From: an uncultured Gammaproteobacteria bacterium
GTDB taxonomy: Bacteria; Patescibacteriota; Microgenomatia; Levybacterales; UBA12049
DNA: 64,000 bases
Direction of reading: 5' to 3'
Assembly (NCBI GenBank): GCA_964553245.1
Contig: CAZKJM010000001.1
Span: forward strand, 447,555-511,554
In this document: positions 1-15,424 of the stretch, piece after piece
Position numbering within the stretch: the first letter of the stretch is position 1
Layout of the letters: the number at the start of each line of letters is the position of its first letter
The notes under the pieces: generated by a model
What the model was told of the DNA's origin: nothing
What the model saw: the letters and a program-made list of their open reading frames with translations, nothing else
Databases searched by the model: none
Position numbers and translations under genes: made by a program

Positions 1-1952
1 TAGCAAGTTGAGTTAACAGTATTTGTTCCATCTACACAGTTTTCGAAACAATAATCAGCGCCATTGCTTTCTGTCCATATCCACCAACCCAAAATTCCAA
101 TATCTACGCCAAGTTTTTCGGAGGCAATAACAGCCTGAGGCATTACTTGTTTCCATCTTTTTAAAATTTCTTCATCAAATATTTTGGGGTTTGGATTATT
201 GGGTGCTGGAAATCCGTATGACTCGAATTTTTTTTGATCAAAACTAGCGCTTGTTGTTTGTCCAGATATTGAACTTGATTGGTTTGCGTTTGATTCCAGC
301 GTCCATTTTACTGTTTTAGTAAGAGATGTGTTTGTTGTTTGGTTTCCGTTTGCGTCAAAAAGAGTTGGGTTGTTGTCTGCGCTTACAAACTCCGCATTAT
401 CGGGGATAGGATCGGTTATAGTTATTTGACTGGGGTTTCCGGAATAAGAAACATTAATTGTAAAGGTTATATCTGAATCAGCAGAGCCAGCAATTGGATT
501 TGGGACACTTTCCTTATTTACTGTTTTAGAAATGTTTACAACAGGATTTCCTCCTATACCAAGCCTTGATTGATAATCCCCAGCACCGAATATAAGAAGA
601 ATTAAGACTAATATAATTATAAAAATTATTACAGCAAGAATAACCCACCCGACAGGATTGCTTCCTAGCGCTACAGCTCCTCCTGTTCCCGCGGCTGCTG
701 TTCCGGCTCCGGCAGCTCCAGCAGCGCTGCCAGCCGCGCCTCCGCCACCAAGAAGAGATCCAAAGATTGATCCTCCGGCTTGCCCTAAAAATCCTCTCCC
801 GGCACTTCCAAACAATTGTCCTCCTAATCTAGGACCAGATTTAAATATAGATTTGCCTTTGTTAAAAAGACTATTTGCTCTATCTATGTAATTTTTGGGT
901 TGTTTAATTGAGGGGAGTCTAAAATTACCAAGTGTTTCATGATCTTCATTATTTGTCGTAGTCGTAGTGGGTGTAAAGGTGGTTGGGGCAAAATACTCAT
1001 TTTGCCTTGCCGAAGAAGAATTGCCGGATGAAGATATGTGCTCACTTAATCTAATTGAAAAACATTGAATAAAAAAAGAAGTTACTTGCTCTCTTGTTTT
1101 TATTGATCCTTTATCCCATTGACGACTCATGGGCTTTTTTAATTTTAAAAATTTTCTCCTTTCTCTTGCGCTTTGGAGTTTTTTTGCCTGTTCAATTTTT
1201 TTTAAGGTTTCGGTTAGAGCAATTGAAACCACATCTCTCTTTGGATCTTGGGCTGGAGCATTTTTTATTGCTTCAATTGCCCTCGCTTTTTCTAAAAGAT
1301 CTGACTTTTCTTTTAAAAATGCTTCGTCTACAGCAAAACGGAAATCGTGATCTTCTTTAATTTGCGCTTCGGTTTTGCCGGCATGCTTTATGCACCATTC
1401 GTCAAACACTTTTTTTTCTGTTCTTCGATATTCCTCTTGCCTTTCTTTTGGGTCCCCAGAGGTCGTGTAGTCTTCTACAACAGTTCTTTTTACAACTTTT
1501 GTAAATAGATCAGGGGCAACAGTTTTTTTTAATCTGACGTTGTATAAAAGCTCTTTTTCTAATTTTTTTATTGATTCATTAAAAAGTTCATCTTTTGTTA
1601 ATTCTTTTTTTTGTTTGCCAAAATAAACGGCGTTTTCCTTTTTGTCTTTTTTTTGCGTCAGATCGCTTGTTTTTTTGTCTTCTGTATCGCTTACCTCCAC
1701 ATGATTTGGGTTTAGGAGAACATTTTCTATGTCCGATCGGAATTTTTCGTATTCAGGATAATCAACCAAGAGCTTAAAAAGGCTATCGTGCGCTCTTTTT
1801 AAACTGTCAGGGGTTCCGAGTGAAGCGTATTTCATTATTAAACTAAATCCATCCCTTGCGGCTTGACCCTTTTCATCTTGTGGCAATGTACTTATGAATT
1901 GCTCAATCCTTTTTTGAACAAATTCCTTTGTTTGACTGTCTTGGTTACTCAT
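1..1952 (-). CDS. Edge-truncated membrane protein. N-terminal ~330 aa are charged/cytoplasmic, followed by a Gly/Ala-rich segment, one TM helix (WVILAVIIFIIILVLILLIF) and an extracellular Ser/Thr/Asn-rich region. The last residues in the window (…VIASEKLGVDIGILGWWIWTESNGADYCFENC…) may begin a peptidoglycan-hydrolase (lytic transglycosylase/VirB1-like) domain.
   Basis: Manual reverse-strand translation gives an uninterrupted frame of 650 codons from ATG at 1952..1950 to the window edge. The ORF track omits it because no stop lies in the window. Its ATG overlaps the VirB4 TGA stop (ATGA), consistent with translational coupling. The small + strand ORFs at 658-1777 are antisense to it. Confidence 0.7.
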   Translation of the reverse strand, partial: MSNQDSQTKEFVQKRIEQFISTLPQDEKGQAARDGFSLIMKYASLGTPDSLKRAHDSLFKLLVDYPEYEKFRSDIENVLLNPNHVEVSDTEDKKTSDLTQKKDKKENAVYFGKQKKELTKDELFNESIKKLEKELLYNVRLKKTVAPDLFTKVVKRTVVEDYTTSGDPKERQEEYRRTEKKVFDEWCIKHAGKTEAQIKEDHDFRFAVDEAFLKEKSDLLEKARAIEAIKNAPAQDPKRDVVSIALTETLKKIEQAKKLQSARERRKFLKLKKPMSRQWDKGSIKTREQVTSFFIQCFSIRLSEHISSSGNSSSARQNEYFAPTTFTPTTTTTNNEDHETLGNFRLPSIKQPKNYIDRANSLFNKGKSIFKSGPRLGGQLFGSAGRGFLGQAGGSIFGSLLGGGGAAGSAAGAAGAGTAAAGTGGAVALGSNPVGWVILAVIIFIIILVLILLIFGAGDYQSRLGIGGNPVVNISKTVNKESVPNPIAGSADSDITFTINVSYSGNPSQITITDPIPDNAEFVSADNNPTLFDANGNQTTNTSLTKTVKWTLESNANQSSSISGQTTSASFDQKKFESYGFPAPNNPNPKIFDEEILKRWKQVMPQAVIASEKLGVDIGILGWWIWTESNGADYCFENCVDGTNTVNSTC

Positions 1953-3877
1953 AGATTAGTTGGCGTGGTTGGGTTTCCTGTCTGTATTGGTTGTTGATCA
2001 GGAGTTATTTCCGGATTTAATTGTTGGGGAGTTTTGGCAAGCGGTGCTTCATCCGTTGGTTTTTCGCTTGATTCCGTTTCTGCCTGTTTTTGCATTTTTT
2101 CAAGCTCTTGAGGATTAGATGTAATTAGCGTGTGCTCAAAAGGAGCAGCAATTACTTTTATAGCAACGTGACTTTGTCCTGCAAAAAATAATCCTTCACC
2201 GATGTCTGCGGAAAGCAACAACTCCTTTTCTCCTTGAGAAAGATAAAATATTTGAGCAATATGGTCAATTTCGGTAGTGCTTTGCTTTAAAAGCACTTGA
2301 ATTGATGAATTGGATAAAACAGCTTTCCCGTAGTCTGTTGATAAAAAGTCCTGAACATCCTGCGTTGCTGTGGTAAGCGCAAGATAATATTTTCTTGATC
2401 TTTTGGCTATTCCATAAACAAACGAAGCTGAATCCTGATATTTCATTATGTACCAAGCTTCATCTAAGATAAGCAATCTCTTTTTAAGATTCTTTTTAAC
2501 TTTTGTCCAAACAAAGTCCAAAATTATATGCATTGCAACCGGTCTTAATTCTTCCTCCAGGGTTTTAATATTAAATACGGTAAAAGGATTCTTTATGTCA
2601 AAGTTAGATTGTTGATTAAATATGCCATTTAAGCTTCCTTTAATGAATTTTTCAAGTCTTAAGGCAAGTTCTCTTGCGGCAGGATCTTCCATTCCCAAAA
2701 GTACTTTGTATAAGTCCTCCATAAGTGGAGGTTGTTTTTTTTGAGTTGAAGGATCTGCGGTAATTCCTTTTTGTCTGTATGTTTCTACCAGAGCTCTATC
2801 AAGTATCGCGTCGTGGGCAGGATCAAGATTGCCCATAATTATTCTTAGCAAGCCGTGAAGAGATAATATTTTTAAGCCGAGTTCGTTTTCCCCTTCTTCG
2901 TAAAGACCAGAAAGATCAAAAGGATTAATTTTTACCGGCTCAGACGGAGTAAAAGAAACATGCTCCCCTCCTAATGTTTTTGTCAGCGCTTCGTATTCTC
3001 CTTCCGGATCAATAATTATTACTTCTGTGCCAAACATAAATTGTCGCATCGCTTCAAGCTTAATAAGATATGATTTTCCGGAACCTGATTTACCAAAAAC
3101 TACTTCATTTGCATTTTCCAGTGTGTATCGATCAAAAATAACTAGTGAACCGTTTTGTTCGTTGATGCCATACATTACTCCGCGATCCTGCGTTAAAGTA
3201 GCAGAGGTAAACGGAAAGGTAGAAGCAAGAGAAGTTGTGTCCATGTTTCTGGTTATGAATAATCTGTCTTGACCAATTGGAATTGTTGACTTAAACCCGT
3301 CTTCCATCTGAAGGGTAGCGGTTTTAGTAATCATCATAATGGAATTAAGTATTGAGTTTAGTCTTTTTGATGCTTCGCTAAGATCATCAAGATTATCCGA
3401 AGATAAAGTTATATACAAACTGAACTGGAAAAATCTTTCAACTCCTTTTGCAAGTTGCTCTTGTATTTCCAGTGCGTCATCAAGTGCTGCTCTTACTTTT
3501 GGATCAACAACTTTTCCCTCCTCGATTTCGGAGGAAATAGTCGCTTCCATTTCGGCAATTTTTCTTCTTAAATCTGCCAGAACATCGGAGGCAGAGGTTG
3601 GGTAAATAAACATTGATACATTCATTGAATGGTCAAAGTCAATTAAAGGCTGTAGCCAGTTTGGAGAAACATAACGTGGGTATCCTACTACAAAAAACGT
3701 ACGATAGTATAAATCTCCAACGCGGATATATTTAAAATCTACTTCAACCGATGGGGGAGCAATTACATCAACTAAAGAAACCATTCCTTTTTCAAGCTTT
3801 TTAATACCGGGACCTTTTGTGTTTTGCTGAACAGGGATTATTGGTTGTTGTTTTGTTTTCTTGCCAAATATTTTCAT
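1949..3877 (-). CDS. virB4: Type IV secretion ATPase, VirB4/TrbE/TraC family
   Basis: Walker A (VVFGKSGSGKSYLIKL) and the family-typical Walker B (LLILDEAWYIMK) are present. Length is 642 aa. Pilin and VirB6-like genes lie upstream in the same orientation. Confidence 0.85.
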   Translation of the reverse strand: MKIFGKKTKQQPIIPVQQNTKGPGIKKLEKGMVSLVDVIAPPSVEVDFKYIRVGDLYYRTFFVVGYPRYVSPNWLQPLIDFDHSMNVSMFIYPTSASDVLADLRRKIAEMEATISSEIEEGKVVDPKVRAALDDALEIQEQLAKGVERFFQFSLYITLSSDNLDDLSEASKRLNSILNSIMMITKTATLQMEDGFKSTIPIGQDRLFITRNMDTTSLASTFPFTSATLTQDRGVMYGINEQNGSLVIFDRYTLENANEVVFGKSGSGKSYLIKLEAMRQFMFGTEVIIIDPEGEYEALTKTLGGEHVSFTPSEPVKINPFDLSGLYEEGENELGLKILSLHGLLRIIMGNLDPAHDAILDRALVETYRQKGITADPSTQKKQPPLMEDLYKVLLGMEDPAARELALRLEKFIKGSLNGIFNQQSNFDIKNPFTVFNIKTLEEELRPVAMHIILDFVWTKVKKNLKKRLLILDEAWYIMKYQDSASFVYGIAKRSRKYYLALTTATQDVQDFLSTDYGKAVLSNSSIQVLLKQSTTEIDHIAQIFYLSQGEKELLLSADIGEGLFFAGQSHVAIKVIAAPFEHTLITSNPQELEKMQKQAETESSEKPTDEAPLAKTPQQLNPEITPDQQPIQTGNPTTPTNL

Positions 3878-4542
3878 TTTTCTTCCTTTCTTACAATAGC
3901 TGTTTTTATATTTTCGGTTATCTGGTTTGTTTCGATATGGGCATCGTTATAAAGCTCGTAATAAAGTTTAACCAATTCCTCTTTTTCTAGCGTTTTTGCT
4001 CCAAGGCTAAGCCTTGCGAGTTGAGCGTGAATCGTATCAAGCTTTGTATGCAAAGATGCTTTTGCCTCTTCGATAAAAGAGTTTTTCCCCGACTGTTTTT
4101 TTACCGTTGCATTTGCAGCTACGGTTGCAGCTCCTTTTTCAAGATACGAATAGGGTATGCAGATATAAAAATTTTTGTCCAGCACGATATTTACTTTAAC
4201 CAATTCCTGCACAAAATCTCTATACAATTTAATTTGACTTGCTAGCATTTCGTTTTGGGTATTTTTGGCTTCGTTGTCTAATAGTTTTAAGTATGAGCTA
4301 ATATCTAGCTTTTTACTCCTAATAATAATTTCTATTGGAAAAGAAAGTGAGTTTAGAAGCGACGCGTAGGAATATATTTTTGTATTTTGCTCTTCAAGCG
4401 ATAAAAGCGCAAAATTTGTCGCTCTAACTTCAATAATAGAACAGGCACTATTTCCGGACAGAAGAACAATATCGTCAATAATATCAATAATTTCCGTAAA
4501 TTTTTGAGTTGTTGAGTGTATTTTTTGGGCAGAATCTTTCAT
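3874..4542 (-). CDS. Hypothetical soluble protein within the T4SS-like operon
   Basis: 222-aa ORF with a 4-nt overlap to virB4 and 3 nt from the upstream gene. No TM segment or recognisable motif. Confidence 0.5.
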   Translation of the reverse strand: MKDSAQKIHSTTQKFTEIIDIIDDIVLLSGNSACSIIEVRATNFALLSLEEQNTKIYSYASLLNSLSFPIEIIIRSKKLDISSYLKLLDNEAKNTQNEMLASQIKLYRDFVQELVKVNIVLDKNFYICIPYSYLEKGAATVAANATVKKQSGKNSFIEEAKASLHTKLDTIHAQLARLSLGAKTLEKEELVKLYYELYNDAHIETNQITENIKTAIVRKEEK

Positions 4543-4545
4543 ATA

Positions 4546-5811
4546 TTAATTACCGAATAAACTTTTTCTTAATTCTTCTCGCTCATCAATAGAAATTACT
4601 TCAATCGGCAAGATTATTTCTCCGGTTGCCTGAAATTCAACAGAATCGAATCTATGTTTTTTTTCCGGATCCTCAAAGTCAATGGTGTATATGCCGTTGG
4701 ACAAAGGAGTTGCTGATGCAAATTGCCCAAGCGGGTTAGTCTTAAAAGCCCGGACTGGGTTTCCTTCCTCGTCTTTTACCTCAACTAAAATATTCGGTAG
4801 AGGATTGTTTCTTGAGTCTTTTATAATACCTGTTAAAACATTTGGAAAATCAGTAGAAATAGGAAGTCCTACGCTTTTGCCCATTTCTTTTGGAATGCTT
4901 CTAACATGTTTAGTTTGTTTTATTTGCGGCTCAGGGATCGCCATGCTTGGGGTGTAAACTTTTTTATTTTGTACCTCAAGTTTTTTTTGAAGTTCCAATA
5001 ATTGATTTTCTAATTGTTGTTTTTGAAGCATAGTTTCATTTAAGATCTTTTCAAGTTCAGTTACTTTTTGGTGCGCTGCCTCATACTCTTTGGATCCTGT
5101 TTTCTCCGAAACTTCTTTTTGCTTTGCTTCCTCAAGTTGTTTTTGAAGAATTACAGCTTCTTTCTGAAGCTCTTCTTCTTTTTCTTCCGGTTCTTCTTTA
5201 GCTTCTTTGGTTGGCATATCAACCGGTTTTGGTGGTTCCACTACAGTTTTTAAATTGTTTTTGCCAAAAATTGCAGCAAATGGATTAGGAAGAGAAAAAG
5301 AGCTGTCATCTTGCAGGGTCTTGGCTTGAATTATTGGGTTAGAAATATTATTCAAGGTTTGCAAAAATGATATTTCTTTTTCGTCCAATTTATTTTTAGG
5401 AGTTTTTGGTAGCGAGGATAAAAATGACTTGAGCTTTTCTTCCGAAATTGCGGGTTGAACAGGAGAGTGAGCCATTATTGCGCCTTGTTTTAATGTCCCA
5501 AACTCGGGAAAATAAAGATCTGCTCCGTTTTTTTGATAAACAAATTGAGTTGGGTTAAAAAGTGCCTTTGAAAAATTGCCAATCATTACATCCAATGGTC
5601 TTCCCTCTATTGGCAAAAAAGCAAAGCTTGCTCCGATTCCGGCTACTACAAGCGCAATCGGAAGTTTTATCAAAAGCAAAAACGGCATAGCAGTAATAAT
5701 CCAACCTAAAATTACGCCTGTTGCAAGATATGCAAACTGTTTGACAGTCATATTGCCGATTAGTTTAAACTGAAAGCCTGTTATATCTTGAGGAATAGGG
5801 TGATTTTCCAT
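4546..5811 (-). CDS. T4SS-associated membrane protein. The N-terminal two-TM module (VirB3/PrgI-like?) is followed by a long coiled coil (EEKEEELQKEAVILQKQLEEAKQ…) and a C-terminal beta-sandwich-like domain.
   Basis: The N-terminus (TGFQFKLIGNMTVKQFAYLATGVILGWIITAMPF…) carries two predicted TM helices and is placed immediately upstream of virB4, as VirB3/PrgI is. Coiled-coil heptads are visible. The C-terminal region (PNILVEVKDEEGNPVRAFKTNPLGQFASATPLSNGIYTIDFE) resembles a carboxypeptidase-regulatory-like/Ig-like fold. Confidence 0.45.
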   Translation of the reverse strand: MENHPIPQDITGFQFKLIGNMTVKQFAYLATGVILGWIITAMPFLLLIKLPIALVVAGIGASFAFLPIEGRPLDVMIGNFSKALFNPTQFVYQKNGADLYFPEFGTLKQGAIMAHSPVQPAISEEKLKSFLSSLPKTPKNKLDEKEISFLQTLNNISNPIIQAKTLQDDSSFSLPNPFAAIFGKNNLKTVVEPPKPVDMPTKEAKEEPEEKEEELQKEAVILQKQLEEAKQKEVSEKTGSKEYEAAHQKVTELEKILNETMLQKQQLENQLLELQKKLEVQNKKVYTPSMAIPEPQIKQTKHVRSIPKEMGKSVGLPISTDFPNVLTGIIKDSRNNPLPNILVEVKDEEGNPVRAFKTNPLGQFASATPLSNGIYTIDFEDPEKKHRFDSVEFQATGEIILPIEVISIDEREELRKSLFGN

Positions 5812-5958
5812 ATAAAACTACTGTATAACGTGAAAAATTTGCTTTCAAGATTATCAAACTAGGTCAAACAACAATTAAAATGTATCTAAAAACCGTGAAA
5901 AATGCAATATAGAAAAACAATAATAATTTATGTAATTATTTCTTTTAGAAAAAGAGGA

Positions 5959-6342
5959 TTAGGAACAGTTATTAAACCCAAAATAATTAATACATTCGGC
6001 TCCTGTTATATAGGCGATAATTTTTATTATTAAAAAAGATAAAAAGATTACCAATAAGCCGATAATTGCATAGGTTAAAGTTTTTTTTGCTTGATCAATT
6101 TTCTTTTGATCTCCGCCTGATGTTATAAAGCTGATTCCGGATAAAATAACAAAAATTAAGGCAACACTTCCCGATAAAATCAAGAGCCAATTAACAACTT
6201 GACCAAATACAACCGGAAGGCATTGAAGAGTTGCAACTCCGTCTACCATACAGTTTGACCAAGAAGCTCCGCCTGAAGTTCCTCCTGTGGAGCCGGTTCC
6301 AGGATCAGCTTTGGCGATAAGGTTAATAAAAGTTGCCAACAT
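5959..6342 (-). CDS. VirB2/TrbC-like T4SS pilin, paralogue 1
   Basis: 127 aa with two hydrophobic helices separated by the short polar loop TSGGDQKKIDQAKKTLTYA, shared with the neighbouring paralogues. It has Cys pairs near the N-terminal (SNCMVDGVATLQC) and C-terminal (AECINYFGFNNC) ends. Confidence 0.6.
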   Translation of the reverse strand: MLATFINLIAKADPGTGSTGGTSGGASWSNCMVDGVATLQCLPVVFGQVVNWLLILSGSVALIFVILSGISFITSGGDQKKIDQAKKTLTYAIIGLLVIFLSFLIIKIIAYITGAECINYFGFNNCS

Positions 6343-6386
6343 AAAGATAGATTAACAAAAGAAATATTAATTTACAATACGCTTTG

Positions 6387-6779
6387 TTATAAAGTCGGGA
6401 GTTCTAGATTATTGATGCTTGGGAGACCAAATACACTTAGTATAATGCTTATTATTAAGTAAGAAAGAAATACTACGATTAATCCAATAATAGCAGCTAC
6501 TATATGACTTCTTGCTGCTTCTACTTTTCCTTTATCTCCACCGGATGTGACCCATCTGATACCACCATATATTAAGTATCCAAGAGCAGCAACAATTGCT
6601 AATATAAATGCGGTATTAATTATTACACCGATTATTTTTCCAAAATCTCCAGCTTTAAGCTCGCATAGAGTTTGAGATATTCCTCCACCTTCGCAAAGAT
6701 TAATGGTCTCTGCAAACGCAAATGGAGCCAGTGTTAAATAGGTTGCTGCTGAGGTAATAATTCCTACAGTTTTTTTCAT
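6387..6779 (-). CDS. VirB2/TrbC-like T4SS pilin, paralogue 2
   Basis: Signal-peptide-like N-terminus (MKKTVGIITSAATYLTLAPFAFA), then TM1, loop (TSGGDKGKVEAARSH) and TM2. This is the classic VirB2 topology. Confidence 0.65.
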   Translation of the reverse strand: MKKTVGIITSAATYLTLAPFAFAETINLCEGGGISQTLCELKAGDFGKIIGVIINTAFILAIVAALGYLIYGGIRWVTSGGDKGKVEAARSHIVAAIIGLIVVFLSYLIISIILSVFGLPSINNLELPTL

Positions 6780-6824
6780 TTATAATTTAATGCTAGTATT
6801 AAATTCCTGTCTTGTCAAGTACTT

Positions 6825-7139
6825 TTATATAAAATTATTAATTCCGAATAGTCCTCCGATAATATTTACAATTAAATACGCTAATAAAACAACTACCAAC
6901 CCGGCTACGGCATAAAATAATTTTTTTCTTGCTGCTTGCAATTTTTGTTTATCGCCCTCTGATGTCATCCACTGAAATCCTCCGTAGATTAAAAAGCCTA
7001 AAGCCAGAATAATAGCAACTATATATAATATATTTACTCCGACACCGATAATTTTTTCAAGAGTACCTGCTCCACCGGTTGGAATTCCTTGTGGTCCTGT
7101 AATCTCTTGTCCTGCAATATTTAAAACGATCTCCTTCAT
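6825..7139 (-). CDS. VirB2/TrbC-like T4SS pilin, paralogue 3
   Basis: 104 aa with TM1, loop MTSEGDKQKLQAARKKL and TM2, the same motif as paralogues 1 and 2. Only 3 nt separate it from the upstream gene. Confidence 0.6.
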   Translation of the reverse strand: MKEIVLNIAGQEITGPQGIPTGGAGTLEKIIGVGVNILYIVAIILALGFLIYGGFQWMTSEGDKQKLQAARKKLFYAVAGLVVVLLAYLIVNIIGGLFGINNFI

Positions 7140-7142
7140 AAA

Positions 7143-8336
7143 TCAGCTGAATCCGGGTATTTTTAAAATATCAACACCAATTACCTGAAGTATAACAAGG
7201 GAAAAGATTATAAACAATAATCCAACAATAGCTGCTGTTAAAGACTCTTTTGCTCCCTGCATTTTTTCCGGGTTTCCTCTTGCCAAAATAATTTTGTAAC
7301 CAGATAGAATGATTAAGATTAATGCAATTCCCCCGGAAAGACTTAAAAGGACACCGAATAAAGATTTAATAAAAGACGCTGCATCTGTTCCTAATGTTAT
7401 TCCAAGCCCAGTATCTATGGATAAACATTTTCCGCCATCTCCCAACTCTGAACAATGCGCAGTAATCGGAGGAAGATTATCAAAAAGGTTATCAATAAAT
7501 ACTTTCCCCTCATTGCTTTCTTCTCCTAAAACATTTAGAACGATCCAGTCTTTATTATTGCCTTCAAAAACATATATAGTTTGATCTCCAATTGCCTTAT
7601 CTGGAACCTTAAGTTCTATTTTACATTCAGGCTCATCTAGACATTGCCTTAAATTGTCCGATCCGCCCTGGAACCTGTATTTATAAGTCCCGCTTTTGTT
7701 GTTATGGATTGTCAATGTAACTGTCTCTCCAGGATTTGCTTTTGAAGGATCGATTGACAACGTGAATGGAGCATTATGTTCTTGATCTAAATAAAAAGTT
7801 CTATAGGTCTCGACATGTTCTTTTTGTTTATTGGTTGCATAAAGTCTATAGACAGCGCCTCCTGTTCCAAAAATATCAAATTTTTCCACTTTAAATTGCG
7901 CTTTAATTTTCCAATTTTTCCCCCCATCATTACTAAAACAAGATTGTTGAACAAATGATGATCCTTGATGAGATAGGTCGCATGTTGAAGACTTTCTGTT
8001 AATTTTATACTCCAATTTCCATTCATGTTTTGAAGATTTAAAAACATTACTGGTTGATTCATTCTCTACCAAAATTAAGAGTTGATATTCTTCATCTGGT
8101 TTTGGCGCTGGTAATTGTCCCCCTCTTGAGTAATAAAGTGTTGTTTGAGTTTGAGCAGTGCTTACTTCTCCCCAAATAGCATCAGAAATATCTAGTTCAA
8201 CGTTTATAATGTCACCGTTTTTTACATTAGTTTTATCAATCGTTAGCGCAACTCCGCTTGCATGAACAGGGTTTTTAAAAAACAGGAAAAAAATTAAGAT
8301 TAAGATTGAAAATAGAATTCTTTTCAGGACAGGCAT
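7143..8336 (-). CDS. Pilin-fusion protein. After a signal peptide, a ~300-aa extracellular domain is fused to a C-terminal VirB2-like pilin module.
   Basis: The N-terminal signal is MPVLKRILFSILILIFFLFFKNPVHA. The Cys-containing extracellular region is beta-rich. The C-terminal 70 aa (…ILSGYKIILARGNPEKMQGAKESLTAAIVGLLFIIFSLVILQ…) repeat the TM-loop-TM motif of the three small pilins. Confidence 0.55.
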   Translation of the reverse strand: MPVLKRILFSILILIFFLFFKNPVHASGVALTIDKTNVKNGDIINVELDISDAIWGEVSTAQTQTTLYYSRGGQLPAPKPDEEYQLLILVENESTSNVFKSSKHEWKLEYKINRKSSTCDLSHQGSSFVQQSCFSNDGGKNWKIKAQFKVEKFDIFGTGGAVYRLYATNKQKEHVETYRTFYLDQEHNAPFTLSIDPSKANPGETVTLTIHNNKSGTYKYRFQGGSDNLRQCLDEPECKIELKVPDKAIGDQTIYVFEGNNKDWIVLNVLGEESNEGKVFIDNLFDNLPPITAHCSELGDGGKCLSIDTGLGITLGTDAASFIKSLFGVLLSLSGGIALILIILSGYKIILARGNPEKMQGAKESLTAAIVGLLFIIFSLVILQVIGVDILKIPGFS

Positions 8337-8374
8337 AATTAAATCGTAATTTAAAAAGTCTGTAAAAGCAAGTT

Positions 8375-9793
8375 TTAAGAAGTAAATTTAAGTCCCCGGC
8401 CTTTTACTGTTTGAAGATGCTTTGGATTATTTGGGTCATCTTCGATTTTTTTTCTGACCCGAAAAATAAGTTGATCCAAAGCCTGATCAGTTACTCCCGC
8501 TGTTGTTTGAGTATCCTTCCAAACAGCAGAAATTATTTCGTTTCTTTCTAAAATTTTTTCATGACTATCGATTAAAAATTTTAATAATCTAAATTCAAGA
8601 GTAGTGAGAGCATCGGATAAAACAATCTCACCTTTTTTAACTTGGTTTGTATTTTGATCGTAAATTATTTTATCCGAGGCGATTTTTATAAGCGCATTAT
8701 TTTTATCAAGAAACATTTCGAGTAGAGGAATTGAAATTTTCCCATTTTTTATTAAACCTATTTTTTCAAGTAGGTTAAGCTGTTCAAGATTAATCTTTTT
8801 AGCCATAGACTTTTGCTCAAACGGCGTTAAAAAACTCCAGATCTCAAAAAGACAGGCTTTAATTTGTTTTCTTTCTATTAAAAAATCAGCAATATTTTCT
8901 TTTGGAAAATCAGAGCTTGTTACAATTTCTGTAGCAAGTCTCGTAAGCTTACTGTGTCCTCCGGTAAGGCTAATTAATTTTTCAATTAATTCTTTTTTAA
9001 TTTTTTTACCCGAGACCTTTTCCAAATACGAAATTCTAAAATCCAGCCCGATTTTGTCTTTAATATTTAAATAGACAATTTTATCAGCAATAAATTCGTA
9101 AAACTGGTTTAATATTTCGGTAATTAAGGTTTCTTCAAGCGGTCTTGTCAGTGAAAATATTGAGGCAAAACGGTATTTAGCTTTATTTCTTAAAATTCTA
9201 AGATTTGCAAAAAACTCGCTTGAAATAACCGGGATGTACTCATCGAAACGATCAAATAAAAAAATAATCGACAATTTTTTTTCGATAGACAAGCAATCAA
9301 AAGCTTCTTTTAAACCCTGAAAAAGAACAAGTTCGTCGTTTAAGCTAAGATGTTCCTTAAAAATACGGTGAATTTCCCTATGTTCATTGATTAACTCTCT
9401 GTCTCTTAATGAATCGGCAAGAGACAAAAAAATATATTTATTTACGTCAAAAAGCGATCGGTTTTTAACCTCGGAAAAATTCATATAAACAAAATGAACA
9501 TTTTTTTGATTTTCTCCCAAATGCTTAACGCGGATTTTGTGATTATAGGCAAGCATCCTTAACAGATTTGATTTACCTGATCCAGGAAGACCAATTAATT
9601 GGCAGGAATTTCCCTCTTTTAGAAAATCTAAAATTTTCTGTATTTCTTCAAAACGGGAATCCTCAGGATAAAGGGATTCAAAATGAGTAAAACCATTATT
9701 GTTTGATTGTTTCATTGCAACACTATGGTAATTGTAAGTTTTTTGTAAGGAAAATATCAAGTTTAATAAGTTCTTAAGGATTAAAATCGCCAT
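8375..9793 (-). CDS. Transcriptional regulator with an N-terminal P-loop NTPase (AAA/STAND-like) fused to a C-terminal OmpR/PhoB-type winged helix
   Basis: Walker A is LIGLPGSGKSNLLRML. The C-terminus matches the trans_reg_C pattern (LTTLEFRLLKFLIDSHEKILERNEIISAVW…ALDQLIFRVRKKI…LQTVKGRGLKF). The annotated start at 9793 lies 4 bp from the divergent ORF start at 9797, so the internal Met at 9715 is a possible alternative start. Confidence 0.65.
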   Translation of the reverse strand: MAILILKNLLNLIFSLQKTYNYHSVAMKQSNNNGFTHFESLYPEDSRFEEIQKILDFLKEGNSCQLIGLPGSGKSNLLRMLAYNHKIRVKHLGENQKNVHFVYMNFSEVKNRSLFDVNKYIFLSLADSLRDRELINEHREIHRIFKEHLSLNDELVLFQGLKEAFDCLSIEKKLSIIFLFDRFDEYIPVISSEFFANLRILRNKAKYRFASIFSLTRPLEETLITEILNQFYEFIADKIVYLNIKDKIGLDFRISYLEKVSGKKIKKELIEKLISLTGGHSKLTRLATEIVTSSDFPKENIADFLIERKQIKACLFEIWSFLTPFEQKSMAKKINLEQLNLLEKIGLIKNGKISIPLLEMFLDKNNALIKIASDKIIYDQNTNQVKKGEIVLSDALTTLEFRLLKFLIDSHEKILERNEIISAVWKDTQTTAGVTDQALDQLIFRVRKKIEDDPNNPKHLQTVKGRGLKFTS

Positions 9794-9796
9794 AAT

Positions 9797-12499
9797 ATGA
9801 CAAAAGAATTTGAATTCCAGAAATTGACAAGCGAAGTTAATTTTTCTACACTCAAAGGTAGAAAGGTTATTTTTATGGAGAACTCAGAAACACCAAGGCC
9901 ACCTGAAGATAAGGGAATGGGTAAGAATGTGTTAGGCGGAGAAAATCCTGCTTCTTCAGAAGCTTCTGGAGTTAACGAAACAAGTGAACAAAGAGGAGAA
10001 GAGCTTCAAAGAAATCTTGCAAGGCTTGGTATAGGAAGCGAAGAGTTTGGAGATATTTCAGAAGAAGAGAGGTTGATGGCTCAAAGAGCACAACAAGAGT
10101 TTATAAGACAAGCAAGGGAGGGTCTTAGAGACAACATTTCCCCGCAGGAAAAACTAAAAAAAGAAGAAGAAAAAATCCTTAGCTTAGGATCAAGAGAAGA
10201 TCTTGATAAATTTTTAGTTTCAAAAGACAAGAATCTTTTGTTTTATCTTCTAGACGCAAAAAGATTAATAGAGAAAGGCGATTTTGCAATAGAAGACGAA
10301 AGAGCAAAGGAAAACTTTTTAAACGAATTAAATGAACTCATTGCGATGTCAAAAGGGGACAAATCAATAGTGGACGTCGATGATTATAAAAGAAGGGTTT
10401 CTGAAATTATTCATGGCAAAACTGATGCGGCTGGTAAAGAAAGCCTCGGCTTAATAGATTTATGTAAAAAACGCGAGCCCAGAGAAATGCACGGCGAAAT
10501 GCCTAAATGCCTTGAAGATCTTGCCGAATTAATCATGAGCTCGGAGGAAGATAAGTGGAGAAAAGACGGAGAAAGAGCGCTTATTAACGAAGAGGGAAGT
10601 GTAAATACGGAAAATTTATTAGCTTGGTTCAGGGACAGAATTATGTGGTTTCATGATTTTAATCCTGATTCGGAGATAAATTTGTTTAATCAAATCTCCG
10701 TGCCAACGCTGTACAGAACCTACTCATTTTCGGAAATGCTTGATAACAAAAGATATTTCTTAAAAAGAACAAAAAGGTTAGGAGAAGGAGAGTACGAACA
10801 TCATAGAAGCGAAGAATATGAAAAATTAAAAGACCATTTGCTTTACGAAGTTTGGTTGTTTAACACCTCGCATAATTATGACGTAAAATACCGCACTGTT
10901 ATGGGAATTGAATCTAAGGTTCCGGAGGTTTTAACAGAAATGTATTACACTAACGTTTTTACTAAGGATAGGAATAGACTTCTCAAGATTTTAAAGCTTC
11001 CTAAAATTGATCAGATAGAAGTAGGAAAGATTGTTAAGTCTAAAAATGGCGAGCAAGAAGGACAGGGAACAGTTGGAAGAGTCGTCAGAAGAGCTCTTCT
11101 TGCCTATTATTATCTTCCGGAGTTGGTTGCAGAAGATGATCAATTAGTAAATGGTGGGAATATGTTTGAAAAGTCACTCGGAGAAAATGGCTCGCTTGAA
11201 TTTTACGCTTCCCTTGTAAAACAGCTTGGTGGAGAAGTCCTAGACACAGGATCAATGGGTTTTAGAGACGCCAGAAATATTTTAAGAGAAAGAATAGCTG
11301 ATTTACTAGATAAAAAATATGGTCATAAATTTACCCAGCTAAATATTTTTGATGACGTAAATAAAGATAGAACGGTACTGCGTCTTATAAGAACTGCCTT
11401 AAGGGATGCGATTGCAAAGGTGGAAGGATTAGCAGATAAAAAAGGAAATCCGGACGAAAACGTTATCTATGGAGAGAACTGGGCAAATACAATGATTTAC
11501 TGGACAGGAATTTCTGCAAAAAACGATACTAATGCAATTGGTTTTGACGCGTGGACAAAAATAATGAGCGCAAAAGATTATAGAGTAAGACAAGCAGGAG
11601 CAAGAGGAATTTTTGGAGAAATGTACAATATTTATGGTTTAACAAGAATCGGATTAAATTTTTGGGAAGGAATTAAAGTAAGAAGAGAAGGAGACAGGGG
11701 TTTTAACTGCAATGTTTTGGAGGTTTTACAGGGTGGTCAAGGAAACGATATTAATCTTGATCGCGGAATAAGCGATTTTGATTTTCAGGATAATGCTCAA
11801 AGACAATTTGCGGCAAATCATATAAGAAATGCTTTTAGTTTTTTTGAATTTGTAATGAAAAAACACGGAATGAATTTTGACCAATTTTTATCTGTTGACG
11901 TATTCGGGAGAATAATTTTTGATCCAGGGAAAGCAGACGAAGTGTTTGATAAATTATGGAGCAAAGGACTTCGTTATACTTTTGATTTGCCGGATTTTTT
12001 TTGGGATCATGAGGTACGTGGTTGGTGGAGAGATAAAGATAAGGATGGTGAGGAGTGCGTATATTTTGGCTCAAAAAAACTAAGGGATTTAATGTTTAAC
12101 GAAGAACTAAATAATATGGGAATGTACGACAGAGAAAGATTTAAAGATCAAAAGAGTAAATTAGCAGCTCGCAATGTTTTTGCATACCTTATTGCTAAAG
12201 AATTATATGCGCATAGAGCATTTGATTCCAGATATAAAAGATACAGCGCAGAACAAATAATGGTAATAGAATCATATTTAAGAGGATACCCATTAGAAAT
12301 TGAAGAAACAGAAGGACACGAGGTTAAAATAAAAGATTACTTTTTCTCAAAAGAGGAATGGGAGCATGTTACAAAAATTTCTCATACACAATATAGTAAG
12401 ATGTTTATGGAAAATCTTGCGTTAACTGGAACCCAAGGAGCAATAGGCGGAGCCTTTTCAGGCATAAAACATTTTATTAAGGAACTAGTAAAATTCTAA
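9797..12499 (+). CDS. Hypothetical 900-aa soluble protein with no recognisable domain, embedded in the T4SS-like locus
   Basis: Long uninterrupted ORF with good coding character, no TM segments, an acidic/charged N-terminal ~250 aa and a Trp/Phe/Tyr-rich core. It is divergent from the regulator gene and convergent with the VirB6-like gene, overlapping it by 4 nt. The start may be a downstream Met (M26 or M41). Confidence 0.6.
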   Translation: MTKEFEFQKLTSEVNFSTLKGRKVIFMENSETPRPPEDKGMGKNVLGGENPASSEASGVNETSEQRGEELQRNLARLGIGSEEFGDISEEERLMAQRAQQEFIRQAREGLRDNISPQEKLKKEEEKILSLGSREDLDKFLVSKDKNLLFYLLDAKRLIEKGDFAIEDERAKENFLNELNELIAMSKGDKSIVDVDDYKRRVSEIIHGKTDAAGKESLGLIDLCKKREPREMHGEMPKCLEDLAELIMSSEEDKWRKDGERALINEEGSVNTENLLAWFRDRIMWFHDFNPDSEINLFNQISVPTLYRTYSFSEMLDNKRYFLKRTKRLGEGEYEHHRSEEYEKLKDHLLYEVWLFNTSHNYDVKYRTVMGIESKVPEVLTEMYYTNVFTKDRNRLLKILKLPKIDQIEVGKIVKSKNGEQEGQGTVGRVVRRALLAYYYLPELVAEDDQLVNGGNMFEKSLGENGSLEFYASLVKQLGGEVLDTGSMGFRDARNILRERIADLLDKKYGHKFTQLNIFDDVNKDRTVLRLIRTALRDAIAKVEGLADKKGNPDENVIYGENWANTMIYWTGISAKNDTNAIGFDAWTKIMSAKDYRVRQAGARGIFGEMYNIYGLTRIGLNFWEGIKVRREGDRGFNCNVLEVLQGGQGNDINLDRGISDFDFQDNAQRQFAANHIRNAFSFFEFVMKKHGMNFDQFLSVDVFGRIIFDPGKADEVFDKLWSKGLRYTFDLPDFFWDHEVRGWWRDKDKDGEECVYFGSKKLRDLMFNEELNNMGMYDRERFKDQKSKLAARNVFAYLIAKELYAHRAFDSRYKRYSAEQIMVIESYLRGYPLEIEETEGHEVKIKDYFFSKEEWEHVTKISHTQYSKMFMENLALTGTQGAIGGAFSGIKHFIKELVKF

Positions 12500-14196
12500 G
12501 ATTGTTTCCCCCAAGCCTTTTCTCCCCCAAGCCATTGTTTAGTGCCATCGGCCAATCGTTGTGCGATCTTAGAATTTTTATGGTTATCGGCATATTTTTG
12601 CGTAAGTCTAATAGGTAAGCTCCTAATAGGACCCGCTCCTCTAGTATAATCAGCAGGTCTTGTCAGTTGTTTCCAGCCGTAACCAGTTGGTTTTCCCAGC
12701 GTTGATGTTCCAACATGGAAGGCTTGACCGATTGGAGCCATCTCAAACTTTGGAGCCTTAAGCATTTTCTCTACCATAGTTGCAACATTCGGAGTTAATA
12801 AAATTATCCCCAGTCCTACAACTGCAGCTAATTGATCTGCATTTCCAACGTTACCTACCAACGGTGGGGTAAAAAAAGTATTTGCGCCGGTTGATTGAAT
12901 TGCATCTATAAAAACTTTTCCGAGCAAAAGCATGGCTACTACAGTAGGAAAAACAATTAACTTAGAGCCTATGCTTCTTAACCAGGAACCAAAACCGCGT
13001 TCGCTTCCCATAAACGGAATTATTCCTATAACAATAAATAAAGGGGACAGTACTATGTCTATGAGTATCCCAACATAAGTGAGCAAAAGCTTAAACCATA
13101 ACCTAAACATAGCAAAAGTTATAGCAACGGCAATAATTAAGAATGCAATTAGTTGACCAAGTCCTGCTAAAACCTTTTCTGCAAATCCAGCAGCAGTTAC
13201 AGCCCCTGCAATTCCACCGATAATACTACCGATAATTGGTATAGCAGATCCAGCAGCTACTCCTGCAGCAACAGACCCAGCCATCATAAGCATACCAAGT
13301 ATTCCTTGAAGTATTTTACCTGGACCAGTTTCGAGCATTGATTGTATAAATGTTCCTATGGCACCCGCAGCTTGCCATGACATACTAACGAAGTTTACAT
13401 TTTTATCGAAATAAATTGGAGCTTGATAATTTACTTGGTTTGCTATTTCAAGTTTAATTTGGGGATCAGCATTTGCAAACAAGTTTATTATTAAATATGT
13501 CGCAACCCACATTAAGTCTATTAGGAATCCGGCAATTGCAAACGAAAAAGTTACTAAAATGATTCCGATAATCATTTTAGGAATTTGATTTTGAATAGTC
13601 ATTACGGTACGCGGATCAATTTTTACACGTAACATTATTGCAAGTCCAACAAGAATAAAAACAAGCACAAAAACTATATAAATCATATTTCTAAAAGCAG
13701 CCCACGCGTTCATTAGTGGATTTAATTGTTGAAAACCGGTTGTTTGTGCAAGCGCTGGTTTTGCAATCCCAAAATTCTGAGCTAGATAATTTACATATTC
13801 AAAACTATGCGCAGGAATATTAAAAGTCATTGTAATCAAATTGTTTAAAACACCGATTACTCCTCCTCCGCCAATTTGTCCGGGTTCTGCAGCGGGTACG
13901 AATCCGATTTTTCCGGTTTTTGGATCTACGCCCAAGCATTGATGATTTTGACTGATTGGGTCATATCCGGTTAACTGACAAGCAACAGTTGCCATTAATT
14001 CTATAAACACATTTTGAGTATAGGTGTGCAGGTTTTGGGGAACATCGGGATTATTTACGGGAGCGGTGTAGCTATTCTGAGCAAAGGAAGATTTACTTAA
14101 GTTAAATAAGAAAATCAGTACAAGAAAAAAAACGGTTATTAACCGGGCAGCGAATCTCATTAATATTAGTTTGAAGTATTTTAATTGGTGTGTCAA
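12496..14196 (-). CDS. Polytopic membrane protein, VirB6/TrbL-like T4SS inner-membrane component
   Basis: A signal-like N-terminus (MRFAARLITVFFLVLIFLFNLSKSSFA, alternative start 14160) precedes a ~130-aa extracytoplasmic region. This is followed by at least six hydrophobic helices with Gly/Ala-rich stretches, as in TrbL/VirB6. Genomic context is the VirB4/pilin locus. Confidence 0.5.
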   Translation of the reverse strand: MTHQLKYFKLILMRFAARLITVFFLVLIFLFNLSKSSFAQNSYTAPVNNPDVPQNLHTYTQNVFIELMATVACQLTGYDPISQNHQCLGVDPKTGKIGFVPAAEPGQIGGGGVIGVLNNLITMTFNIPAHSFEYVNYLAQNFGIAKPALAQTTGFQQLNPLMNAWAAFRNMIYIVFVLVFILVGLAIMLRVKIDPRTVMTIQNQIPKMIIGIILVTFSFAIAGFLIDLMWVATYLIINLFANADPQIKLEIANQVNYQAPIYFDKNVNFVSMSWQAAGAIGTFIQSMLETGPGKILQGILGMLMMAGSVAAGVAAGSAIPIIGSIIGGIAGAVTAAGFAEKVLAGLGQLIAFLIIAVAITFAMFRLWFKLLLTYVGILIDIVLSPLFIVIGIIPFMGSERGFGSWLRSIGSKLIVFPTVVAMLLLGKVFIDAIQSTGANTFFTPPLVGNVGNADQLAAVVGLGIILLTPNVATMVEKMLKAPKFEMAPIGQAFHVGTSTLGKPTGYGWKQLTRPADYTRGAGPIRSLPIRLTQKYADNHKNSKIAQRLADGTKQWLGGEKAWGKQS

Positions 14197-14228: not shown

Positions 14229-14315
14229 GGAGGGATCGCATAGAGGCCTAGTGCGTTCGCTTGGAGAGCGGATGTCGTCGTGAGATGACCGGGAGTTCGA
14301 ATCTCCCTCCCTCCG
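14229..14315 (+). tRNA. tRNA-Ser(GGA), type II with long variable arm
   Basis: Acceptor GGAGGGA/TCCCTCC, 3-bp D-stem, anticodon stem TTCGC/GCGGA with loop TTGGAGA, an 18-nt variable arm and T-arm GGGAG-TTCGAAT-CTCCC. The track ORF at 14102-14374 is an artefact over it. Confidence 0.8.
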
Positions 14316-14390
14316 CCTTCACCCGCCGAAGCCAGAATGGCGAAGGCGGGCTTCGATCGGGTTTCAGCGGACACAGTCCGCCATAATGAG

Positions 14391-14819
14391 TTATGAGTTA
14401 TGAGTTATGAGTTGTTTTGCTTCCTCCCAAACCTTTTTATCTGATTTGTAAGTTAATTTTTTTTCCACTTTTTCCACAGAAAGCCATTCAACGCTTTCCA
14501 TTTCTTTATCTTTTAAGCTTAAATCCTCAGTTAAATATTCCATTAAAAAATAATAAACGGTTTTCTTGATTTTTTGTTTTTCAAAAACATACCAATACTC
14601 AACCGGATTTAATGATTTTAGAATTTTGGCGTTAATACCTGTTTCTTCCAAAACTTCTCTTATTGCTGTGTCTTCTTTTTTTTCTTTTTCAATCTTATCT
14701 CCGATTAATCCCTTTGGAAAAACCCAGCCGTGATGTTGTGAATGCTGGCACACTAGAATTAAAAGTTTATTTTTTTCTTTTTTAAAGACTATGCCACCGG
14801 CAGAAAATTCAAATTTCAT
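14391..14819 (-). CDS. NUDIX hydrolase
   Basis: Nudix box GX5EX7REVLEETGI present (…KGLIGDKIEKEKKEDTAIREVLEETGINAKI). Overlaps the upstream GIY-YIG gene by 4 nt (ATGA). Confidence 0.7.
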   Translation of the reverse strand: MKFEFSAGGIVFKKEKNKLLILVCQHSQHHGWVFPKGLIGDKIEKEKKEDTAIREVLEETGINAKILKSLNPVEYWYVFEKQKIKKTVYYFLMEYLTEDLSLKDKEMESVEWLSVEKVEKKLTYKSDKKVWEEAKQLITHNS

Positions 14820-15058
14820 AATGGAAATAAATGTTTTTTTAAGAAAGCCCTTCCAGAACCAGATTTAAGGTATTTCTCAAAATTAAAAGCGGTATATTTA
14901 TCTATGAACGCAAAATAAGAGATCAGTCTTATTGGACGTAGTAATTTAGTTGCAGGTACATGTCCTTTTTTATGCCTTTCTATTCTTTCTTCCAAATTGC
15001 TTGTACAACCCGTATATGGTTTGCCGTTTTTACATTTTAAAAAATATACAAAAAACAT
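14816..15058 (-). CDS. Small stand-alone GIY-YIG domain protein (~80 aa)
   Basis: The GIY-YIG-like motif is MFFVYFLKCKNGKPYTGCTSNLEERIERHKKG. The track ORF (14816-15259) is over-extended across two tRNA genes. The real start is probably the Met at 15058, with AAGGAG 9 nt upstream. Confidence 0.6.
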   Translation of the reverse strand: MFFVYFLKCKNGKPYTGCTSNLEERIERHKKGHVPATKLLRPIRLISYFAFIDKYTAFNFEKYLKSGSGRAFLKKHLFPL

Positions 15059-15122
15059 ACTAATTTCTCCTTCGCGAACTACTAAGCGGATGTTATCCGC
15101 CGTAGCTCGCTTCGGCGAGCGA

Positions 15123-15212
15123 TGGCGGAGGAGAGAGGATTCGAACCTCTGTGAGCCGTAAAGCCCGCTCGGTTTTCGAGACCGGCCAAATAAACCACTC
15201 TTGCACTCCTCC
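15123..15212 (-). tRNA. tRNA-Ser(CGA), type II
   Basis: Reverse complement gives acceptor GGAGGAG/CTCCTCC, 3-bp D-stem CAA/TTG, anticodon loop CTCGAAA (one C·A mismatch at the stem top), a long variable arm, T-arm AGAGG-TTCGAAT-CCTCT and an encoded CCA. Confidence 0.65.
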
Positions 15213-15217
15213 ATAAG

Positions 15218-15290
15218 CGCTCTTGGGGAGAATCGAACTCCCAGCCTAAGCGTCCGCAACGCTTCGCTCTATCCGTTGAGCTACAAGAGC
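15218..15290 (-). tRNA. tRNA-Arg(GCG)
   Basis: Reverse complement GCTCTTG-TA-GCTC-AACGGATA-GAGC-G-AAGCG-TTGCGGA-CGCTT-AGGCT-GGGAG-TTCGATT-CTCCC-CAAGAGC-G. Every stem pairs perfectly and the anticodon is GCG. Confidence 0.75.
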
Positions 15291-15297
15291 CCGTTAC

Positions 15298-15346
15298 CGC
15301 TTCGCTCTATCCGTTGACCCCGATTAAATCGGGGTTGAACTACAGG
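15298..15346 (-). repeat. Truncated 5' copy of tRNA-Arg (5' acceptor strand, D-arm and 5' anticodon stem) interrupted by a 17-nt hairpin, upstream of the intact tRNA-Arg
   Basis: The 19-nt stretch gcttcgctctatccgttga occurs at 15261-15279 and again at 15299-15317. The second copy is followed by ccccgattaaatcgggg flanked by a ttga duplication, then actacagg, which is the D-stem region. It ends exactly at the anticodon stem/loop boundary. Confidence 0.55.
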
Positions 15347-15361
15347 CACAGATTAGCAAGT

Positions 15362-15375: not shown

Positions 15376-15424
15376 AATAAATAGCTACACTGTGATTTTA
15401 CTTTAAAGTTGAATTTGAAGCAAA

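Follow-up and report, generated by a model that had tools for sequence, protein, structure and literature searches.

The first 14,196 positions of a 64-kb stretch of DNA from the Levybacteria (Microgenomatia, candidate phyla radiation, CPR), in the following termed the window, encode a type IV secretion system (T4SS), which is the locus under study. We interpret this block as the chromosomal, vertically inherited Patescibacteria-clade T4SS of the Levybacteria, which derives from the conjugation apparatus of the monoderm MPF-FATA type and has been repurposed, and we assign this reading a probability of roughly 0.8. The locus is the kind of system published between 2023 and 2025 and no new kind of system; what goes beyond the published papers are modest leads, namely a candidate for VirB6, a conserved regulator, and a fast-evolving 900-aa protein without a structural match (X900).

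The Patescibacteria-clade T4SS are characterized by a VirB4 that is nested in MPF-FATA, by abundant TrsD and PrgI proteins, by VirB2 arrays, especially in Microgenomatia and Saccharimonadia, by an almost complete lack of relaxases, by a type IV coupling protein (T4CP) encoded far from virB4, and by a position near dnaA/dnaN (Quinonero-Coronel et al. 2025, PMC12102498). VirB2 pilins are a known peculiarity of these systems compared to MPF-FATA (PMC12857230), and VirB6 was described as 'scarce' in Microgenomatia, which was put down to extreme divergence (PMC12102498). Nearly all of these ultra-small bacteria have such a system on the chromosome, close to the origin of replication. The example studied by experiment comes from the Saccharibacteria: in Southlakia epibionticum, epibiotic growth depends on the cluster SEML1_0006-0019 and its pilin array (Wang et al. 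2023, PMC10633639; PMC12857230), whereas the Levybacteria locus is known from its genes alone. The role of the Patescibacteria T4SS was called 'completely unknown' in a review (PMC11665869). Few machines have been shown to be indispensable to CPR bacteria living as epibionts, and this is one of them; the window offers a clean, contiguous example of it from the Levybacteria.

We place the locus in this clade because its anatomy matches point by point with respect to TrsD, PrgI, the VirB2 array, the lack of a relaxase, the distant T4CP, and the dnaA side. The closest relatives of every gene are from Patescibacteria (Levybacteria), which together with an anatomy as in PMC12102498 and PMC10633639 bears out the kinship to CPR and episymbiont systems proposed in a preliminary description of this DNA. 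All components named there for positions 1-14196 were found in their places. The full list of parts, with additions and corrections, is:

3-1952, minus strand: N-terminal 650 aa of the 1025-aa hydrolase protein, which runs off the window
1949-3877, minus strand: VirB4-family ATPase, 642 aa, with Pfam, NCBIfam and PDB matches
3874-4542, minus strand: TrsD-like protein, 222 aa (PF26593 TraC-like; VirB4_plasma and TrsD profiles)
4546-5811, minus strand: extended VirB3/PrgI protein, 421 aa (PrgI profile)
5959-6342, minus strand: VirB2-like pilin, 127 aa (PF18895, 41.4 bits)
6387-6779, minus strand: VirB2-like pilin, 130 aa (PF18895, 31.0 bits)
6825-7139, minus strand: VirB2-like pilin, 104 aa (PF18895, 37.9 bits)
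7143-8336, minus strand: large pilin, 397 aa (PF18895, above gathering score)
8375-9715 (maximal open reading frame (ORF) to 9793), minus strand: NTPase-winged helix-turn-helix (wHTH) regulator, 446 aa from the likely start M27
9716-9796: divergent intergenic region of 81 bp between the regulator gene and the 900-aa gene
9797-12499, plus strand: X900, 900 aa, soluble protein of a fast-evolving family
12496-14160 (maximal ORF to 14196, 566 aa), minus strand: probable VirB6/TrbL-like polytopic protein, 554 aa from the likely start
43058-45427, plus strand: T4CP (VirD4/TraD)-like ATPase, 789 aa, Pfam T4CP families at or just above threshold

The VirB4-family ATPase is recognized by several models. 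It matched Pfam P-loop_TraG (1.5e-27) as well as DUF87 and AAA_10, reached 399.6 bits (cutoff 325) with the NCBIfam model NF045971, 'VirB4-like conjugal transfer ATPase, CD1110 family', and aligned with the C-terminal domain of Thermoanaerobacter VirB4 (PDB 4ag5) at 4.8e-46; Walker A (GKSGSGKS) and Walker B (LLILDEAW) are intact. The alignment with NF045971 covers positions 179-734 of 752, and that with PrgJ of plasmid pCF10 (BLASTP, 25% identity over 552 residues, 6e-42) starts from PrgJ residue 241, meaning that the first ~180-240 residues of PrgJ/CD1110-type VirB4 proteins are missing. This region is accounted for by the upstream 222-aa TrsD-like ORF, a relative of the VirB4 N-terminal domain, which was left out of the preliminary parts list. 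The trsD-like gene is separate from virB4, with which it overlaps by 4 bp, and its product matches VirB4_plasma, the VirB4 model for integrative and conjugative elements (ICE) of mycoplasmas, at positions 98-233 (1.1e-10) and TrsD weakly (0.002), whereas the precomputed annotation gives PF26593 TraC-like. A VirB4 N-terminal region split off as TrsD is a trait of the pGO1 subclass, in contrast to pCF10.

The VirB3/PrgI-like protein exceeded the gathering score of the PrgI profile (30.6 vs 27) with residues 5-92, which form a membrane hairpin. Beyond residue 92, a charged coiled-coil linker leads to a CarboxypepD_reg-like beta-sandwich (residues 326-383), in agreement with the fusion that had been proposed; a pairwise BLASTP comparison with PrgI of pCF10 gave no similarity. 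The four tandem pilins all lie above the gathering score of PF18895 T4SS_pilin (31-41 bits vs 26.6), and each has two hydrophobic helices, which is the VirB2 topology. The four genes share a 54-nt repeat, in register, which codes for the second helix, and the local-alignment identity among the proteins is 23-55%. The large pilin is composed of a signal peptide, a variable extracellular domain of ~300 aa and a C-terminal VirB2-like module (residues 322-386), and its C-terminal quarter is the only part kept in relatives. It is encoded by the first gene of the array in those related loci that have one and is a candidate for a tip or adhesin subunit; no match was found for it among the PDB sequences. 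With VirB4, PrgI and four VirB2-type pilins above curated thresholds, the profile searches thus confirmed the core of the proposed T4SS.

The order of the genes in the minus-strand row is regulator, large pilin, three pilins, PrgI-like, TrsD-like, VirB4, and the 1025-aa membrane-anchored protein. The gaps along this row measure 38, 3, 45, 44, 147, 3, -4 and -4 bp, which indicates an operon-like, partly translationally coupled arrangement. On the plus strand, the 900-aa gene diverges from the regulator gene, 81 bp apart, and converges on the gene of the 554/566-aa polytopic membrane protein, the ends overlapping by 4 bp. The true starts are probably at 9715 for the regulator (446 aa) and at 14160 for the VirB6-like protein (554 aa). 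Altogether, thirteen features were counted in window 1-14196. No repeated operator-like motifs stood out between positions 5700 and 9900 except for the in-frame repeat due to pilin paralogy, promoter and terminator scans gave no enrichment over shuffled sequences, and the 147-bp gap between the last pilin gene and prgI folded no better than shuffles (z 0.46) when inspected for a terminator or attenuator.

The row continues to the left of the window. The genes located there were read from a contig with an identical VirB4 (L001), and the cluster extends further than the limits 1-14196 given previously, reaching dnaA by way of genes for a C39-like peptidase, a 196-aa protein and DnaN. The 1025-aa protein, whose gene start overlaps the virB4 stop codon (ATGA), consists of a long cytoplasmic part, a Gly-rich stretch, a single transmembrane (TM) helix (residues 437-455), a DUF11-like Ig domain, and a Peptidase_M74/LAS murein-endopeptidase domain (residues 884-962, 31.9 bits vs 25), in which H-x6-D and H-x-H motifs are visible. 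The suspicion of a hydrolase domain in the truncated Gly-rich protein was thus correct, but the domain itself is encoded beyond the window edge; the full-length protein had no match among the PDB sequences. It is a functional analogue of VirB1/PrgK. Directly past it follows the C39-like peptidase (Peptidase_C39_2, 1.8e-18); neither the M74/LAS nor the C39 peptidase is a VirB1 homologue, as both are devoid of an SLT or CHAP domain. The subsequent genes in L001 encode the 196-aa TM-anchored protein (11519-12109), which by its position is a candidate for VirB8, then DnaN and DnaA, which are convergent, and then RnpA and YidD. With dnaN and dnaA just past the left window edge, the T4SS cluster is origin-proximal.

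Elsewhere in the window, a tandem pair of genes at 27485-31945 encodes class A penicillin-binding proteins of 729 and 724 aa, and a SpoIID-domain protein is encoded at 21812-23509, a notable outlay on peptidoglycan remodelling for a reduced genome.

The setting of the locus and its conservation argue for inheritance as part of the chromosome. The AT-rich window has a uniform GC content of 0.29-0.38 without a compositional island, and its chromosomal nature is evident from a tmRNA gene (18044-18412) accompanied by SmpB and from tRNA and housekeeping genes throughout, the latter including glycolysis, pentose-phosphate, peptidoglycan, ribonucleotide reductase, FtsH, TrpRS, Tgt and RecF-like genes; seven of the eight tRNAs called by ARAGORN were confirmed by Rfam. 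A search with VirB4 yielded more than 7,900 relatives at E values up to 1e-10. The 120 matches listed are 72-100% identical, and the named ones among them all stem from Patescibacteria or Levybacteria (72-95%). For comparison, 80 loci from species-representative genomes were used, all of them Levybacteria where properly labelled. Synteny agreed with the proposed relationship: the order VirB6-like/X900/regulator/pilins/PrgI/TrsD/VirB4 recurs across Levybacteria, with TrsD kept in 79, PrgI in 75 and the pilin array in ~55 of the 80 loci, and the regulator in at least 35, a count bounded by the flank length fetched. In 63 related loci dnaN is located 0.05-6.6 kb downstream of virB4 and is always convergent. 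Across one set of 56 genomes, the mean identity to the window protein is 73.8% for VirB4, 62.9% for DnaA and 52.8% for DnaN. The variable parts are the virB4-dnaN segment with the hydrolases and the ectodomain of the large pilin. The conservation of VirB4 and the fixed neighbourhood of dnaN point to a core function that is passed on vertically and kept by strong purifying selection, and not to a mobile element; that VirB4 is better conserved than DnaA across species-level relatives underlines that the machine belongs to core physiology and is not a mobile accessory. About 13 loci that extend far enough upstream (e.g. L006, L008, L019, L042) hold PrgI-TrsD-VirB4 only, and their pilin/regulator/VirB6 part presumably sits elsewhere.

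A split system of this kind was seen in L083 (16100-21779), where one site has the VirB6-like gene, a large ORF, the regulator and the pilins, and a second site, next to dnaN, has PrgI-TrsD-VirB4. Many of the related records of metagenome-assembled genomes (L002-L081) are titled 'uncultured Gammaproteobacteria bacterium' despite Levybacteria-like genes, apparently placeholder mislabels. Transcription of the T4SS operon (window 1-9715, minus strand, and L001 12112-14704) runs toward dnaN/dnaA and is convergent with dnaN in 63/63 related loci; if oriC is situated upstream of dnaA, replication would meet the operon head-on, an unusual orientation for an operon so well conserved and so near the origin.

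Compared in detail, the locus shares with the published Patescibacteria-clade systems a VirB4 whose relatives are all Patescibacteria among the named matches listed, an adjoining TrsD-like gene, PrgI/VirB3, a tandem array of divergent VirB2-like genes, peptidase-type hydrolases encoded immediately downstream of virB4, the lack of a relaxase in the window, a remote T4CP-like gene, and the position beside dnaA/dnaN. It differs from them in its divergent VirB6-like gene, located 8.6 kb upstream of virB4, and in the extension of PrgI to 421 aa. With prgH-prgL/pcfC of pCF10, the MPF-FATA prototype, it has in common a VirB4 that passes the equivalog cutoff of the CD1110 family and aligns with PrgJ, the collinear order PrgI, VirB4, large cell-wall hydrolase (prgI-prgJ-prgK), and the lack of a VirB7/9/10 core and of VirB11. 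In contrast, pCF10 possesses a relaxase, an adjacent T4CP and surface adhesins and has no VirB2 pilin, whereas the locus described here is chromosomal and has four pilins but neither relaxase nor adhesin genes.

The preliminary description had looked for the coupling ATPase at 43058 and had seen no relaxase, VirB7/9/10 or VirB11 in the window. Families of relaxases, VirB7/9/10 and VirB11 were indeed not detected among the scanned ORFs of the window, which comprised those of at least 100 aa except for a few overlapping larger genes or the tmRNA. The protein encoded at 43058-45427 has a TM segment at its N terminus, the Walker motifs A (GKTGVGKS) and B (YLYVDEF), and matches to TraG-D_C (24.2 vs 22), TrwB_AAD_bind (22.0 vs 20.5) and T4SS-DNA_transf (20.1 vs 20.1) at or just above the Pfam thresholds. 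Its similarity to TrwB is confined to the P-loop, and all NCBIfam T4CP models scored far under their cutoffs. The protein is thus T4CP-like, as had been expected, but its tie to the machine at 1-14196 is tentative.

Directly upstream of this gene, at 41530-43053, are encoded a 356-aa protein and then a 137-aa ORF without matches. The former shows a weak likeness to CagD of the Helicobacter cag island (Pfam 8.9e-4, below cutoff; PDB 3cwx, 0.0065), and together with the T4CP-like ATPase the two may form a small second T4SS-related module.

The polytopic protein encoded next to X900 is probably a divergent VirB6/TrbL-like protein, judging from its homologues and its predicted structure. Its family comprises ~900 clusters, the named members of which all belong to Patescibacteria or Levybacteria. 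Two of 45 aligned homologues matched Pfam TrbL/VirB6, one (P0227) above the threshold (32.0 bits vs 25.9) and one (P0211) below it (24.9), and the matched stretch corresponds to residues 267-467 of the window protein (290-467 for P0227), where its TM segments are best conserved. When the AlphaFold model (predicted local distance difference test score (pLDDT) 70.6) was searched with Foldseek, chains of TrwI/VirB6 from the R388 stalk (7o3v) ranked 1, 2 and 6 of 350,542, the top match having an E value of 0.018 and a probability of 0.95. An alignment of the family with a 31-member TrwI alignment by hhalign placed its invariant P385 and W405 on the invariant P181 and W199 of TrwI. The comparisons with PrgH of pCF10 (no similarity detectable), with R388 TrwI alone and with the TrwI alignment yielded no more than this weak local match; P0227 had no tblastn match in 72,556 plasmids, and the family profile retrieved nothing relevant from the PDB sequences. 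The VirB6/TrbL-like call of the preliminary description thus held with respect to homologues and model but not in a direct match of the protein itself, and the gene probably locates the 'missing' VirB6 of Microgenomatia.

The regulator combines a C-terminal OmpR/PhoB-type winged helix (Trans_reg_C, 1.9e-17) with an N-terminal P-loop NTPase of the STAND/NACHT type (GLPGSGKS; weak matches to NPHP3_N, nSTAND3 and NACHT), the architecture that had been proposed for it. The 81-bp region upstream contains a sigma-70-like sequence, TTGATA-18-TACAAT (9760-9731, minus strand), recognized by consensus match alone. Searched by term, the main text of PMC12102498 yielded nothing on a regulator of the locus; the 900-aa opposite-strand gene was not part of this search. 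As a conserved putative nucleotide switch, the regulator is a testable addition to the Patescibacteria T4SS.

X900, regarded as an orphan in the preliminary description, has a sizeable family: among 1.84 billion cluster representatives (50% identity clusters), 256 matched at E values up to 0.001 and 128 at 1e-30 or better, the homologues being mostly 800-1650 aa long. The protein has no TM helix or signal peptide. Its AlphaFold model, built with 47 homologues, is a confident one, with a pLDDT of 84.5 (mostly >90 from residue 240 to ~870) and a predicted template modelling score (pTM) of 0.76, and the N-terminal ~90 residues are disordered. Against solved structures, the model gave nothing below E 0.2 in Foldseek; Pfam and NCBIfam gave nothing below E 0.01, a profile search of the PDB sequences gave no match, and a Pfam search of 29 longer homologues revealed no fused domains. 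Since no HUH-type or other relaxase fold was found, X900 is not a recognizable relaxase. In related loci that reach far enough, a large opposite-strand gene is present between the VirB6-like gene and the regulator. A metagenome scan with the X900 alignment recovered seven loci. In eight of the related loci the profile missed this gene, yet an ORF of 800-1240 aa with faint similarity occupies the equivalent place, which indicates that the family diverges fast. The immediate neighbour on the 5' side of the large opposite-strand gene is always the regulator gene, the two being divergent in most loci and tandem and co-oriented in about nine, and this constant adjacency suggests a regulator-target pair. 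It is conceivable, although we consider it doubtful, that X900 is a partner specific to the Levybacteria T4SS, the most attractive version being that of a translocated effector whose expression is gated by the adjacent STAND-type NTPase-wHTH regulator. If so, a Patescibacteria T4SS would for the first time have a candidate substrate together with its regulator; as a positionally conserved, rapidly diverging protein without a structural match, X900 is in any case a plausible cargo or host-interaction factor.

Several observations weigh against the interpretation as a repurposed Patescibacteria-clade T4SS or against parts of it. The assignment of VirB6 is indirect: the 566-aa protein itself matched nothing in Pfam or NCBIfam, the TM-score of the top Foldseek match is low (0.27), and hhalign reported a single local match with an E value of 0.03 and a probability of 1.7%. 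No VirB8-like bitopic protein was matched by Pfam or NCBIfam. The T4CP-like ATPase is encoded 29 kb from the locus and has marginal family scores, and the absence of a relaxase applies to the 64-kb window only. The roles proposed for the regulator and X900 rest on conserved adjacency. Finally, nothing in the gene content singles out a cargo.

A working model consistent with the gene content would be the following. A VirB4 hexamer and its TrsD partner, which resembles the VirB4 N-terminal domain, would be tethered to the membrane by the extended PrgI/VirB3 protein; docked on the polytopic VirB6-like protein, they would make up the membrane translocon. Two enzymes, the LAS metallopeptidase anchored in the membrane and the C39-like peptidase from the gene downstream, could open the peptidoglycan, and VirB4 could then pull the VirB2-like pilins from the membrane and polymerize them into a surface filament or conduit, with the large first pilin as a variable tip or adhesin. 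The filament would contact the host cell and support exchange, either by the export of effectors, possibly including X900, or by the uptake of host molecules, and the NTPase-wHTH regulator might switch the pilin operon and/or the 900-aa gene. In this model the machine would not be the conjugation apparatus of a mobile element.

An alternative is that the VirB2/3/4/6 set serves as a machine for DNA uptake similar to Helicobacter ComB or archaeal Ced and imports DNA from the host or the environment as a source of nucleotides or for transformation, an idea raised in PMC11665869. Helicobacter pylori ComB and Ced are likewise derived from T4SS, have no relaxase and kept a VirB4-type ATPase, and here, too, no relaxase was found in the window and no T4CP in the locus. 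However, ComB requires homologues of VirB7/9/10, comprises VirB7-10 homologues and works with ComEC, whereas VirB7/9/10-like families were not found in the window, and the similarity to the Ced proteins is distant: VirB4 matched the model of the DNA-import ATPase CedB with 5.1e-16, which corresponds to 58 bits and is far under the cutoff of 700. This sub-threshold likeness to CedB and a ComFC-like gene 2.7 kb off the locus, with counterparts near the locus in L082 and L083, speak for uptake. In S. epibionticum, on the other hand, comEC is dispensable while the T4SS is essential (PMC10633639, PMC12857230), so that the essential role there is not ComEC-dependent transformation. On balance, we regard a DNA-uptake machine as unlikely.

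The ComFC-like protein itself (16928-17620, 2.7 kb from the VirB6-like gene) combines a double zinc ribbon with a phosphoribosyltransferase domain. Pribosyltran genes occur near the locus in L082 and L083 too, the L083 copy having a weak zinc-ribbon match, whereas the published survey reports a comF association for the ABY1 class only (PMC12102498).

Slightly less probable still is a pure adhesion organelle, in which VirB4 and the pilins make a filament for attachment without any translocation. Four pilins, one of them large and with a variable extracellular domain, and the lack of a coupling protein in the locus would fit such a function, and conjugative pili are mainly attachment organelles (PMC12857230), but these genomes use type IV pili for adhesion (PMC12857230), and the retention of a VirB6-like channel protein and the extreme conservation of VirB4 suggest more than adhesion. 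An ICE or its remnant inserted at the adjoining tRNA-Ser and still transferring DNA, for which one could cite the conjugation-type family of VirB4 (CD1110), the tRNA-Ser gene (14229-14317) beside the locus, and the T4CP-like and tyrosine recombinase genes elsewhere in the window, is ruled out for practical purposes by the lack of a relaxase or integrase within the locus or next to it, a tRNA whose 3' end faces away from the locus, the uniform GC content, the place beside dnaN in 63 related loci with a VirB4 more conserved than DnaA, and the XerC/D-like size and architecture of the recombinase at 45564.

Some further observations concern neighbouring and related regions. Inside the T4SS cluster of a related member of the Levybacteria (L082), two small genes for four-helix-bundle proteins are present at 14527-14898 and 20243-20620, one inserted ahead of the regulator gene and one in the prgI-trsD interval. 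Both match Pfam 23S_rRNA_IVP, and the first also weakly an Avd-like family (bAvd); Avd-like proteins accompany diversity-generating retroelements. No 23S_rRNA_IVP/Avd-like four-helix-bundle genes occur in the window.

In the right part of the window, a gene for tRNA-Ile(tat) with the anticodon UAU, which is uncommon in bacteria, is located at 45489-45561 between the T4CP-like gene and that of the tyrosine recombinase of XerC/D size and architecture (45564-46424). A 70-nt tRNA-Met called by ARAGORN at 47627-47696 (minus strand) overlaps the 3' end of an inositol-monophosphatase ORF and, as it was not reported by Rfam at the gathering threshold, may be a false positive. On the side of the VirB6-like gene, the locus is adjoined by tRNA-Ser(gga) at 14229-14317, which belongs to a tRNA cluster (14229-16246) with four Ser isoacceptors and one Arg tRNA. 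The maximal ORF of a GIY-YIG protein (14816-15259) overlaps two tRNAs of this cluster, so that the real gene probably starts at M68 and encodes ~80 aa.

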